This document shows positions 8,610 to 26,472 of a stretch of 32,000 bases of DNA, piece by piece. Location of the stretch: assembly GCA_030668875.1 (NCBI GenBank), contig DAOVER010000018.1, positions 1-32,000 of the forward strand. The letters run 5' to 3'. This stretch comes from Candidatus Heimdallarchaeota archaeon (GTDB lineage Archaea > Asgardarchaeota > Heimdallarchaeia > Heimdallarchaeales > Heimdallarchaeaceae). A program made the translations under genes and the position numbers. Positions within the stretch are counted from its first letter, which is position 1. The number at the start of each line of letters is the position of its first letter. Below the pieces are notes generated by a model. The model made no database searches. It had not been told where the DNA came from and worked only from the letters and a program-made list of their open reading frames with translations.

Positions 8610-11600
8610 TTAGATTACATCCCACATTTTTTCCTCAAAAAAGAATAGAGCCTTTCGTCTTAGTTCCTCTGAACGTTCTTTTTCAAGTTTTACGTTTTTA
8701 TTTAACCTATAGTTTCTGGTTGATAAATCAGACAAATCTACAAATAAGTTGTATACTGGTTCAATTTCCATAATTTTGTTTTTTAATTCTTCCAAATCTT
8801 GAATTTGGTCTCTATCTCTTGAATAATCTTCGGTTGCTACATCTATGATTAGTGCTAAGAGTTGATTATTTAAGCGTATGATTAGATTTAACTGATTCTT
8901 TAAGGTATCTACAAATATTTCGTAATTAGAGAAACCCTTTGCAGCGAAATCAATTTGTTCTTTTTTAGTGTAAAAACCATTATTTTTAGCATATTGCCAT
9001 TCTTCAAAAGCTGAAAACCCTAATTGCAGAGCTCTTTTCCAGTCATTATAATTATCAAAACCTAATTCTTTTGCTCTAAAATAGAGATGACCAAAATGAA
9101 ATCCTGCTTCTCGTTTTGGTTTAGCATCCTTATAAGATAGAAAACCTCGTCTTCTAGCTCGCTTATTTCGAACAACTCGAACAGTTATAAAAACAAGTAT
9201 TCCTAAAATGATTACTTCTACGGGAATTAGCCAATAAATAATTAATTCCCAATTATCCCATTTGAAAGGGTTCCTATCCTTCGTATACTCTTCCAAATTT
9301 GTTAAATCATCGTTGTCATAATCTTTTCTTGAATCATCAATTAGTGGGTTGAGATTATTATTATACTCCCAACCATCCGGCATCCCATCCCCATCTGTAT
9401 CTTTAGACCAAATATTAGTACCAATTTGATATTCTAATAAATTATCTAATCCATCATTATCAAAATCAACTGAAGCATCATCAGGATTTAAAGGATTCAA
9501 CATGAAAATTATGGTTTCAAAACCATCCGGCATCCCATCCCCATCTGTATCATTGTTAAATGGTTGAGTATTATAATAATACTCCCAGAAATTGGTAAGT
9601 AAATCATTGTCATAATCAATACTGCTATCATCAAAGTTGGGATTAAGGCCATTATAAACCTCCCAATCGTCAGTAATACCATCGAAATCACTGTCACTTA
9701 ATAGAGGATTTGTAAGGTAAGTATTTACTTCCATCCCATCTGATAAACCATCGTCATCTGAATCCATATCCCAAGGATCTGTGTTGTAAATATACTCCAG
9801 ATAATTTGTTAACCCATCTCCATCAGCATCCTCAGAACTGTCATTAACAAGAGGATTCAGAAAGTGAATTACTTCCCACGCATCATCTAAATTGTCTCCA
9901 TCCGTATCAAAATTATTAGCATCAGTGAAATAAGTAAAAATTTCTTGATAATCTGTAAGAGTGTCATTATCGGAATCTACTGAATTTGGCAATGTAAAAT
10001 AAGTAAATATTTCTTCAAAATCTAGTAACCCATCTCCATCCGTATCATTTAGAAGAGGATTACTCTGGTAAAGTAACACTTCGTCTCCATCGATGATTCC
10101 ATCCCCATCTGTATCGTTTATATTGATGTTACTTCCAATGTTAATCTCTTCAAGGTTAGTTAAACCATCATCATCAAAATCTTCAGCTGAATCATGAACC
10201 AGAGGATCCATTCCTAATGCAATTTCATCTCCATCCCCTACCTGATCATAATCACTATCCCAATAAGTTGCATTGGTGAGATAGAAGAAAATTTCCTCCC
10301 CGTCCCCTAACCCATCTCCATCTGTATCGTATTTATTAGGATTGGTATGGTAAGTTAATTCCTCTAAATTATTTATCCCGTCATTGTCATCGTCCACTAA
10401 ACTGTCATTGGCATTTAGGTTTAAATTATTATCAAATTCAAACCCGTCAAGTAATCCGTCTCCATCCGTATCATTGTTTAGAGCATCTGAGTTTGTAAAA
10501 TAAATTTCGTATCCATCCATTATTCCATCGAAATCAGAATCGTTTAAAGTGCTATTAGTTTCATAATGAAGCTCGGTAGCATCATCTAAGAAATCGCCAT
10601 CAGTGTCCATATGACCATTACGAGCAATATTACCTTGGAAACCCCACCAAATACTATTCGTTGTTTCTAAGGTACCTAGAATTGTAAAACAGTAAATATC
10701 ACCATTATCATTTACACATATGATTTCAGGGATATTGTCATTATCTAAATCAGCTTGACATGGATGTGCATCAAAACCAGTTGCCATAGAATATTCGCAA
10801 ATTTGTTCTCCTAAGTTGTTTAAGATATATAATTTGGAACTTGAAAATCCAGTACCAGGAAGACTATCAGTGAAAACTATTATTTCTGACTTACCATCAT
10901 TTTCAATATCTGTTAAAGCTGGTGAGCATCTGAAATTCTCCTCATAATTTCCAGCTTGAAATGTCCATTGTAATGTTCCTGTGTGACTTACACAGAAAAG
11001 ATATGTTGCATCGTTTCCTAAAATTATTTCCGGATAATTATCATTATCTAGATCAGCAACAGATATACTGCCATCTAAATAACCTTCTCCAAGATCACAT
11101 GACCAATAATCATTTCCATAATAACTTATTGCTGTCAATCGACCACCAGGATCAGAGTTCCCATACATTAAAATCTCAAATTTTCCATCATTATTTAAAT
11201 CAGCGCAACTTGGTGATGAATATGTGTCGAAGTAACCAAAATATGACCACTCTTCGTTTCCAAAGCGATTAAGACATACAATCTCTGATTTAGCGAGTAA
11301 TATTACTTCTAGTTGACTATCATTATCAACATCTATTATTAATGGCGATGAGTATGAATAATAGTGATTCGTTGTATCTATGGAGTAGAACCACTCAATA
11401 TGTCCTGTACTGTTCAAACAGAATAAACCTGCCCCCTCTGTATGTAGTGTGCTAAATCCATCATTACAAATAAAAAGAATATTCATGTTCCCATCATTAT
11501 TCAAATCTGCTATAGCTGAAGTTGATCCAATATCTCCATTCGATTGAAATCGCCATATTTCTGAACCATCATCATCTAAGCAAAAAACGTAAGAAGAACT

Positions 11601-12026
11601 ACTTGTAACTATAATTTCAGGATATACATCATTGTCAAAATTTGCAATTGATATGAAACAACCACCTCTTAATTCACTGTCTGCAAAAACCCATCTACTG
11701 GAGCCGTTATTTTCTATACAATGAATATTCCCGTTATGATCACTTATAAGTAATTCATATTTTCCATCATAATCCAAATCAGAAATAATAGGAGCAGAAT
11801 CTCGAAAATATGCCAATTCATATGTCCATTCGATACTTAAACTATAATCAGAAAATAGTGAAATGTCATCTGAAGGTAGAGTGGATTGAACTTGAATCAC
11901 ATTTGCTTCTTCACTAAATAATACCTTATCGAGAGCAACTATCTTGGAGTGTGGAACAAAGGATCCAAATAGTAAAATTAACTGAAAAGCAAATAAGATT
12001 AATACTCTTCCTTTGTTCTTTGACAT
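8610..12026 (-). CDS. P1: surface protein with 8-repeat FG-GAP/PQQ-like propeller, 19 TSP3-like Ca-binding repeats, TM helix and cytoplasmic GF-repeat/helical tail
   Basis: N-terminal hydrophobic segment; eight (A)DLDxDGxxEIIV repeats each followed by GxxxW; 19 DxDxDGxxD/NxxE units; TM IIYWLIPVEVIILGILVFITV; six 14-aa GF repeats. Confidence 0.9.
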   Translation of the reverse strand: MSKNKGRVLILFAFQLILLFGSFVPHSKIVALDKVLFSEEANVIQVQSTLPSDDISLFSDYSLSIEWTYELAYFRDSAPIISDLDYDGKYELLISDHNGNIHCIENNGSSRWVFADSELRGGCFISIANFDNDVYPEIIVTSSSSYVFCLDDDGSEIWRFQSNGDIGSTSAIADLNNDGNMNILFICNDGFSTLHTEGAGLFCLNSTGHIEWFYSIDTTNHYYSYSSPLIIDVDNDSQLEVILLAKSEIVCLNRFGNEEWSYFGYFDTYSSPSCADLNNDGKFEILMYGNSDPGGRLTAISYYGNDYWSCDLGEGYLDGSISVADLDNDNYPEIILGNDATYLFCVSHTGTLQWTFQAGNYEENFRCSPALTDIENDGKSEIIVFTDSLPGTGFSSSKLYILNNLGEQICEYSMATGFDAHPCQADLDNDNIPEIICVNDNGDIYCFTILGTLETTNSIWWGFQGNIARNGHMDTDGDFLDDATELHYETNSTLNDSDFDGIMDGYEIYFTNSDALNNDTDGDGLLDGFEFDNNLNLNANDSLVDDDNDGINNLEELTYHTNPNKYDTDGDGLGDGEEIFFYLTNATYWDSDYDQVGDGDEIALGMDPLVHDSAEDFDDDGLTNLEEINIGSNININDTDGDGIIDGDEVLLYQSNPLLNDTDGDGLLDFEEIFTYFTLPNSVDSDNDTLTDYQEIFTYFTDANNFDTDGDNLDDAWEVIHFLNPLVNDSSEDADGDGLTNYLEYIYNTDPWDMDSDDDGLSDGMEVNTYLTNPLLSDSDFDGITDDWEVYNGLNPNFDDSSIDYDNDLLTNFWEYYYNTQPFNNDTDGDGMPDGFETIIFMLNPLNPDDASVDFDNDGLDNLLEYQIGTNIWSKDTDGDGMPDGWEYNNNLNPLIDDSRKDYDNDDLTNLEEYTKDRNPFKWDNWELIIYWLIPVEVIILGILVFITVRVVRNKRARRRGFLSYKDAKPKREAGFHFGHLYFRAKELGFDNYNDWKRALQLGFSAFEEWQYAKNNGFYTKKEQIDFAAKGFSNYEIFVDTLKNQLNLIIRLNNQLLALIIDVATEDYSRDRDQIQDLEELKNKIMEIEPVYNLFVDLSDLSTRNYRLNKNVKLEKERSEELRRKALFFFEEKMWDVI
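9260..10607 (-). repeat. 19 tandem TSP3-like (DxDxDG) repeats of P1
   Basis: From DTDGDFLDDATE to DYDNDDLTNLEE; 449 codons from the first Asp to the W of WDNW. Confidence 0.9.
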
Positions 12027-26200: not shown

Positions 26201-26472
26201 GCTATAGCTTCTACCACCCCATCCTTATCAATGTCAACAAAGCATGAAATTTCGAAATTGGGCGAGGTTTCCCATCTATCGTCAAAAACATAGTCTTCTG
26301 TAGCATCTAACACTGGATTGTTTAGTGTAGGCTTACTAGCTTTAACATCTATCAACTGAGATTCAGAAGAAACTATCACTAAAGAAAAGATCAATAGGAG
26401 TGGAATAATCATCTTTCTTAAGCATGTTATTCTCATCTGTTTCACATTTGATATAAGTAAGTTTAGGACCAA
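23206..26472 (-). CDS. P4: paralogous propeller-TSP3-TM-GF-repeat surface protein
   Basis: Same architecture with a more divergent propeller. The true start may be ATG at 26436 (MRITCLRKMIIPLLLIFSLVIV) rather than TTG 26472. Confidence 0.88.
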   Translation of the reverse strand: MVLNLLISNVKQMRITCLRKMIIPLLLIFSLVIVSSESQLIDVKASKPTLNNPVLDATEDYVFDDRWETSPNFEISCFVDIDKDGVVEAIATNGFYEIDGLPTADAISTSNPYATVADIDKDTNVDLIFTSGTRISVLNNDFSQQWFYATSIENGFFQTPCVADITNDGYLELITCNYALAYCIDYHGDLLWAYDFPDSSQKVQICVMDLDGDKEFEIIISTSNRLLCLNNVGSLLWSITYDYSNPHDIAIADLDDDSTDLEIVQSHASRLYCYDKLGELLWSADDAYYNIGNLLVADFDNDGGNEILAAPYQRNELYLYDNNGELLWFREGNLPNYGELAICDFDGDDTLEIIMSPDSSYIYCISHTGSTEWIHRKMQYSNRALPLAYDVDGDNVVDIFVKGGGFSIENINSSGSHSYWTYRGGFSRSNNIDSDADYIDDSSEIYYGTNSKNADCDSDGLKDGEEIYFYHTDPWTNDTDNDGLPDGWEIYNFLDPLINDSMDDLDSDGLNNYEEYLYSTLANEEDSDGDGLTDWEEITLYPSDPLDFDSDDDGLSDGEEILLYGTNVTNNDSDNDLMTDGWEVHNLLNPLDNDSFVDYDSDLLENLGEFLNDTDPWNNDTDDDFLIDGVEVFVYNTNPTLNDSDYDNLTDYYEIFISHTDPINFDSDGDGMPDGWEVNYTLNPLEVDSLEDPDYDNLINVDEFDNNTDPFNPDTDDDLMPDGWEVQYELNPLVNDAPLDPDTDELQNVVEFNIGTNPRKRDTDDDGMPDGWEYNNNLDPSTADGSDDNDEDGLSNLLEYLHRTDPNLNDTDNDTLLDGLEVITYKTNPLDSDTDDDLMTDGWEVQNELNPLVDDSFEDPDGDFISNIDEYKRGKNPQQWDNWSVLFGLFLIPAYLLIIFSSCFLLLKSKHYILRKKFGFISYKDLQTASESGFSNGDEFYTAILAGFSTKEQWLSANKQGFIFEDEWIEAQQSGFISLDSKKSTEKIGFDDFIEFRKEKTETMEKYRFILHNLFQNLLELKESNNLTAKRKNQLKNNLKKDISEIEPLKAKLIIYSDAPIDDHNFDKSVITEIQRLDELVSELSKLL
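23835..25176 (-). repeat. 19 tandem TSP3-like repeats of P4
   Basis: From DSDADYIDDSSE to DPDGDFISNIDE; 447 codons to WDNW. Confidence 0.9.

Follow-up and report, generated by a model that had tools for sequence, protein, structure and literature searches.

Four TSP3-stalked, receptor-like surface proteins with a predicted, previously unnamed cytoplasmic repeat domain in a Heimdallarchaeota genome

The stretch of DNA analyzed here (the window), 32,000 nucleotides of a Candidatus Heimdallarchaeota archaeon (assembly GCA_030668875.1, contig DAOVER010000018.1, positions 1 to 32,000), carries four intact open reading frames on its minus strand: P1 (8610-12026, 1138 amino acids), P2 (12287-15577, 1096 amino acids, start codon GTG), P3 (19801-23100, 1099 amino acids) and P4 (23206-26472, 1088 amino acids, start codon TTG), with exactly the boundaries given in an initial annotation of this DNA. 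They are probably glycoprotein-like adhesins or receptors of the TSP3-stalked class, in which a new tail domain serves as a docking platform, with P2-P4 as mosaics and the family confined to a single genus. Among known organisms the Asgard archaea stand closest to eukaryotes, which is why ways of connecting their cell surface with the interior are of interest. TSP3-stalked proteins are abundant in Asgard archaea and are in this sense of an already known kind; what is new at this locus is the cytoplasmic domain and the local mosaic expansion.

The N-terminal ~430 residues of all four proteins match FG-GAP, FG-GAP_3 and Beta-prop_CGLA above the Pfam thresholds, with 50-90 bits for PF25292 (cut-off 26.8) and 28.6-50.6 bits for PF13517 (cut-off 26.9). 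The ~450 residues after the propeller are occupied by TSP3_bac (PF18884; 34.6-94 bits, cut-off 25), also above threshold in all four, and this stalk measures 453-455 amino acids in each protein and holds 19-20 Ca-loop sites of the repeated DxDxD type. Modelled from 11 family sequences, the P2 head is an all-beta propeller of about 33 strands (predicted local distance difference test, pLDDT, ~80 in the core; predicted template modelling score, pTM, 0.76), and its best Foldseek matches are eight-bladed: Cake8 (E 2.6e-15), YxaL, BamB and Bap1 of Vibrio cholerae. Blade motifs similar to DxDxD..E[IV] number eight in P2 and P3, 7 in P4 and 6 in P1. Going by this model the heads of P1-P4 are predicted to be eight-bladed Ca2+-binding propellers, and they are divergent, the P4 head being only 27-30% identical to every other head. 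In P2 the FG-GAP/PQQ-type propeller lies at 14282-15445 (about residues 45-432) and the Ca-binding stalk at 12923-14281 (residues 433-885), both on the minus strand, as are all features of the four genes given below.

Each of the four proteins starts with a signal-peptide-like segment and has a single later hydrophobic helix with an invariant WDNW just before it; in P2 this transmembrane helix is at 12839-12910 (residues 890-913) and a K/R-rich stretch follows it. In all four the 15 residues after the helix include 5-7 K/R and zero D/E. The N-terminal side has 13-16 N-x-S/T sequons, 10-17 cysteines and a net charge near -170, and the tail, 181-189 amino acids long, has 0-1 sequon, 0-1 cysteine and a net charge near 0. 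From the positive-inside rule and the extracytoplasmic nature of TSP3 and FG-GAP domains we infer that P1-P4 are type I single-pass membrane proteins with the tail in the cytoplasm. This is in accordance with the topology of a single-pass receptor or adhesin that the initial annotation had proposed and for which the asymmetry of charge, sequons and cysteines around the helix speaks. The architecture that it had described as common to the four (an 8-repeat propeller, 19 DxDxDG repeats, WDNW and transmembrane helix, a tail of ~180 residues) is likewise borne out by the Pfam matches, the head model, the number of Ca-loop sites and the tail lengths.

The first GF of the tail stands 12 residues past the transmembrane helix, and from there on six GF units follow each other with an exact spacing of 14 residues in all four proteins. 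The consensus of the unit is G-F-x-[ST]-x2-[ED]-[YWF]-x2-A-x3, with one short helix in each, and the arrays are located at 8895-9146 in P1, 12554-12805 in P2 (residues 925-1008), 20068-20319 in P3 and 23467-23718 in P4. Matches of a GF profile reach E 3e-24. In P2 a C-terminal three-helix bundle (12290-12553, about residues 1009-1096) comes after the array. An AlphaFold2 model of the tail, made with a 29-row alignment, has a mean pLDDT of 95.4 and a pTM of 0.78 and consists, in this order, of a short helix after the membrane, six helices of ~9 residues, one per unit, and three long helices.

Pfam searches of the tails up to E 10 returned only sub-threshold noise (Ndufs5, TetR) and did not recover a SHOCT-like or HhH-like kinship. 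There was no NCBIfam family match for the tail, nothing below E 0.5 when a profile of the GF array was compared with PDB sequences, and no usable match for the array in a feature search of the ESM Atlas. Structure searches with the tail (Foldseek PDB, VIA wide and VIA re-rank) matched solely its last ~100 residues, and the matches were generic antiparallel three-helix bundles, among them a plectin spectrin repeat, Not5 and syntaxin Habc (Z 10-12, root-mean-square deviation 2.0-2.5 A, identity 9-20%), all below the Z of ~13 that separates helical bundles from chance. With Foldseek against the PDB the bundle reached E 0.1 or worse, and the Atlas structure matches to the tail had TM-scores below 0.5 in all rows. 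These whole-tail searches barely tested the GF array, so the novelty of its fold is not claimable from them. Co-folding of two copies of the tail scored 0.00 against a mark of 0.42 and is uninformative about self-association either way. On the strength of the model, the tail appears to be a confidently folded, previously unnamed repeat domain with no match to a known enzymatic or anchoring family in the Pfam, NCBIfam and structure searches, which supports the initial annotation on this point. With it the locus would enlarge the increasing range of inner modules seen on Asgard TSP3-stalked proteins. As it is small, soluble and well predicted, the tail would also be a practical bait for finding the partners of the receptors, if any exist.

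The tails of P2-P4 are 81-87% identical to each other, P4 and P2 having 87% in common. The initial annotation had seen that P2 and P4 are identical over 97 cytoplasmic residues despite silent differences, and indeed 21 of 21 nucleotide differences in this part are silent, which without constraint would occur by chance with a probability of 4e-16; because of this the tail is a functional, constrained domain. For the tails of P2-P4 the ratio of nonsynonymous to synonymous substitution rates (omega; dN and dS, respectively) is 0.12-0.20 with dS 0.43-0.60. The last 180 residues of their stalks have nearly the same values (omega 0.15-0.19, dS 0.5-0.85), and the heads have a dS of at least 1 or one that is saturated. 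When P2 and P4 are compared, identity at third positions is ~0.35 in the head and grows gradually to the ~0.8 that it has from alignment column 800 on, which is still in the extracellular stalk. Since the conserved block starts in the middle of the stalk, not at the membrane, and has low dS, the shared 3' half should be recent, and P2-P4 appear to be mosaics in which this half (distal stalk, transmembrane helix and tail) was recently exchanged or converted. That P2-P4 look like a "variable head, fixed tail" set would be a consequence of the shared young 3' half and so shows no exceptional constraint on the tail, which is under ordinary purifying selection and not specially conserved. Read in this way, the locus is a clear natural example of how heads may be diversified by recombination on a shared chassis of stalk, transmembrane helix and tail. 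The tail of P1 is only 24-27% identical to those of P2-P4, no better than its head. The conserved cytoplasmic repeat tail that had been ascribed to all four therefore stands for P2-P4, and for all four in its six-unit architecture, but not for the sequence of P1.

Comparison with seven orthologs from the same genus leads to the same picture. In the four closest pairs tail identity is at or below that of the head in three and equal to it in the fourth, two example pairs having 71/66/63% and 66/70/62% identity in head, stalk and tail, respectively. Tail dN equals or exceeds that of the head, and the sole pair that is not saturated has an omega of 0.11 in the head, 0.17 in the stalk and 0.17 in the tail. 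The lower dN/dS of the tail that the initial annotation had set as its test is thus found within P2-P4 and is not seen between orthologs, and the family as a whole seems to evolve fast along its whole length. P0154, an ortholog of P3 from another metagenome, shares with it 86% of the head, 90% of the stalk and 79% of the tail, and its tail is closer to that of P2 (83%) than to that of P3.

The GF array on its own is more widely distributed than the complete tail. An exhaustive profile search of 1.84 billion protein cluster representatives (E <= 0.001) gave 161 representatives, mostly from Heimdallarchaeia; the five best of the 161 are N-terminally cut fragments of the P1-P4 family and the remainder match the GF array only. 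The named relatives are annotated as Candidatus Heimdallarchaeota, Heimdallarchaeaceae, Kariarchaeaceae and Thorarchaeota. An NYN/Zc3h12a RNase domain accompanies the array in 10 of 70 distant matches and a RING finger in 7 of the 70. Among 149 GF matches, 82 have no transmembrane helix, 30 have a single N-terminal hydrophobic segment and in 13 long GF arrays come after a polytopic N-terminus; a few GF proteins have SH3_3, LysM or PG_binding_1 domains or an N-terminal hydrophobic segment. GF tails placed after a transmembrane helix were found behind a DUF285 ectodomain (P0027), behind an ectodomain containing PKD (P0049) and behind an SBBP propeller with CarboxypepD_reg and TSP3 (P0107), and a shorter array of about three units stands behind the same kind of propeller in P0181 and P0182. 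These five proteins support, at the level of the GF repeat, the earlier suggestion that the tail is paired in a modular way with other ectodomains, and the array appears to be a real, rare module that is reused behind varied ectodomains. Across the phylum it is present in 31 of 300 genomes, with its main weight in the family to which the window belongs (14 of 27) and in the same order and class. In a closed genome of another genus of the same family (G108:C1) we observed fifteen GF-array matches, in frames of 2278, 1672, 1485, 1459 and 1381 amino acids, a far greater expansion of the repeat than the genome of the window shows.

The ectodomain is far more common, at least 1910 proteins being matched by an ectodomain-only search at E <= 1e-10. 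They come from numerous lineages of Asgard archaea as well as from Thermoplasmatota, Bathyarchaeia and some bacteria, and the heads on the TSP3 stalks of these relatives include proteases, LamG, beta-helices, a substrate-binding protein and others. For 63 relatives with a transmembrane helix after the last Ca loop, the tail is longer than 40 residues in 29, longer than 100 in 23 and not longer than 15 in 21. One of them, P0232 (1404 amino acids), has an FG-GAP/PQQ propeller, TSP3, a transmembrane helix at residues 797-828, a PCI-like region and a Ser/Thr Pkinase domain at 1158-1398. In P0177 (1700 amino acids) TSP3 and a transmembrane helix are followed by TIR, its ectodomain matching only the TSP3 repeats, and P0176, which like P0232 has the propeller type of P1-P4, carries a zinc-ribbon tail. 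By their domain order P0232 and P0177 are true receptor-type versions of the TSP3 chassis, and because the same chassis serves these kinase and TIR receptors, a receptor-like role of P1-P4 becomes more plausible, although it is not thereby shown. P1-P4 belong to a large class of single-pass proteins of Asgard archaea that have a TSP3 stalk and differ in their inner domains. The class, which we name only informally, shares a signal peptide, a variable head, a TSP3_bac stalk, one transmembrane helix and often a long inner domain, and databases list its members as 'VCBS repeat-containing', 'SBBP repeat-containing', 'binary toxin-like calcium binding domain-containing' or hypothetical. P1-P4 differ from its other members in the GF array and three-helix bundle on the inside, in the confinement of the complete tail to one genus and in being four tandem mosaic copies.

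In the arrangement that we favour, the Ca2+-binding TSP3 stalk would hold the variable propeller head away from the membrane, and the head would probably capture an external ligand or partner surface in a Ca2+-dependent manner. Stalk, WDNW and the single transmembrane helix would lead to the folded domain of GF array and three-helix bundle inside, which most likely is an intracellular protein-docking or organizing platform at the inner face of the membrane, and P2-P4 would share an exchanged or converted 3' half that has since been kept by ordinary purifying selection. Several observations weigh against this reading. Over 17 family tails conservation is nearly confined to scaffold positions (GF, Ala, "GFST.EQ", "D.W..A"), with little of it in the bundle, which weakens the idea of a specific docking surface; the SH3_3, LysM and PG_binding_1 domains and the N-terminal hydrophobic segments of some GF proteins suggest that the arrays may not always be cytoplasmic; and the pairing of heads with tails rests on the original assembly, as short contigs support the gene order and break inside the genes. 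These contigs, Logan contigs from four marine-sediment runs of one study, show zero differing letters in comparison with the window and bridge all intergenic junctions. They break in the shared 3' regions at about 12600-13535, 20019-21050 and 23418-24077, with raised depth there, as would be expected if the mosaic were an assembly chimera among near-identical 3' regions of paralogs. We regard such a chimera as very improbable, considering that every junction between the genes is bridged, that the three tails are all distinct sequences, that identity climbs through the stalk gradually and not stepwise, and that P0154 shows the same pairing of head and tail independently.

The initial annotation went further and had diversified heads that all signal by way of a single intracellular partner, common to them and bound to an invariant tail, as kinase-less adaptor signalling or cytoskeleton coupling. 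The close similarity, low omega and silent differences of the P2-P4 tails agree with this, as do the relatives in which the same type of ectodomain is fused to a kinase or TIR and the GF arrays of RING and NYN proteins. The idea of a fixed tail with one common partner nevertheless did not hold up well and seems to us rather unlikely: the 3' half is recently shared, with its conserved block beginning in the extracellular stalk, the P1 tail has diverged, ortholog tails change as fast as heads or faster, the three-helix bundle is poorly conserved, and this genome (92% complete), in which only P1-P4 have the GF array, offers no further GF protein as a homotypic partner. Still less likely is a bolder version in which the array, as an Asgard adaptor domain not described before, would connect receptors at the surface with machinery inside the cell and be common to membrane RING ligases and NYN RNases, so that a kinase-less, adaptor-based transmembrane coupling similar to integrin and talin would already be present in archaeal relatives of eukaryotes. 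Of equally low probability in our judgement is a passive surface coat or adhesin whose tail is a structural foot for membrane insertion or lateral spacing and conveys no information across the membrane. Such a coat would suit the scaffold character of the conserved residues, a fast-evolving family that is restricted to one genus, about half of whose searched genomes lack it, and a TSP3 stalk that also displays enzymes and binding proteins; on the other hand, the 21 class members that manage with tails of 15 residues or less indicate that a folded, constrained domain of 180 residues exceeds what anchoring needs.

As a working analogy for P1-P4 we can use integrin alpha, which also has an FG-GAP-type Ca2+-binding propeller on a leg, a single transmembrane helix and a cytoplasmic tail without an enzyme. 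The integrin alpha propeller is seven-bladed, however, and that of P1-P4 eight-bladed; its legs are Ig-like thigh and calf domains in place of the TSP3_bac repeats that stand here between propeller and membrane; and its tail is short with GFFKR, whereas the tail of P1-P4 is folded and its GF belongs to a 14-residue repeat. No integrin beta-like gene is present among the annotated open reading frames of the window, the rest of the genome not having been searched for one. Other "integrin-like" Asgard proteins, unrelated to these, are mentioned in PMC9258230, which cites Liu et al. 2021 for 'integrin repeat-containing ESPs', and our literature searches found no description of the P1-P4 family or of the GF repeat. 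Bap1/RbmC of Vibrio cholerae and YxaL of Bacillus have the same propeller fold class (PDB 6mlt, E 5.7e-13; 7evf, E 1.7e-12) but are secreted and possess no TSP3 stalk, transmembrane helix or cytoplasmic domain. CglD and MtsD of Myxococcus (NF033765, NF047639) are similar in being surface adhesion proteins with TSP3-type Ca-binding repeats; the partial matches (E 1e-20 to 1e-27) reach 73-96 bits against a cut-off of 400 and cover the repeats only, and heads and anchoring differ. With spectrin repeats and syntaxin Habc the tail bundle appears to share no more than the arrangement.

Among 23 same-genus genomes searched, the complete tail is strongly matched (E 1e-28 or better) in about ten, with 1-2 copies in each, and the complete family genes are open frames of 1082-1229 amino acids. 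Beyond the genus there was no match to the complete tail, only to the GF array, and the P1-P4 family therefore appears confined to one Heimdallarchaeial genus, usually in one or two copies. Genes for a giant FtsX-like permease, a HAD hydrolase and an ABC ATPase adjoin the family gene in the six same-genus relatives in which the full locus is available, and in G020, a seventh relative, the contig stops before any of them but the HAD gene can be seen. As the family gene of the relatives holds exactly the position of P1, which itself adjoins the HAD hydrolase gene, P1 is by position the ortholog of the family gene that same-genus genomes have in single copy, and P2-P4 are extra copies. One same-genus genome, G001, contains a 5'-truncated family copy (L022:4487-5119, plus strand; cluster representative P0008) with a partial transmembrane helix and a complete tail and no ectodomain, which starts immediately behind an unrelated polytopic gene, following its stop codon. 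In the window itself a relic of a fifth family gene, its last ~24 codons and stop (15738-15809), sits just upstream of P2, between the P2 start and an open reading frame of 393 amino acids, and degenerates upstream. Both the truncated copy and this relic are marks of past rearrangement.

The window block at 1719-8540 consists of the giant FtsX-like permease (1419 amino acids), a double ABC ATPase (587 amino acids) and a convergent HAD-IA hydrolase (248 amino acids). The last was considered as a partner of the family and set aside, since it is a generic HAD-IA hydrolase and its adjacency may be mere synteny at the level of the genus. The genes of 323 and 393 amino acids between P2 and P3 were rejected as partners as well, not being conserved beside family genes in the relatives. 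When P1, P2 and five neighbours were compared with the PADLOC models of anti-phage defence, none matched at E <= 0.001. The runs listed as matching the locus are marine-sediment DNA runs of one study and small cold-seep shares, with no RNA runs among them.

The 323-residue protein (17205-18176, minus strand) has four CxxC-x17-CxxC treble-clef zinc fingers and matches PF23477 at E 1.5e-63 and also TIGR04272. Between it and P3 lies the gene for a right-handed, NosD-like beta-helix protein of 496 amino acids (18244-19734, minus strand); in G005 a homolog with 35% identity (L027:14771-16357) lies upstream of the family gene, two genes away, and weaker homologs are near the family gene in G001, G004 and G020. 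Divergently from P4, at 26714-28531 on the plus strand, the window encodes an internally repetitive protein of 605 amino acids with weak SBBP and PDIAV-lipoprotein similarity, and a repeat related to that of this protein begins L025 in G020.

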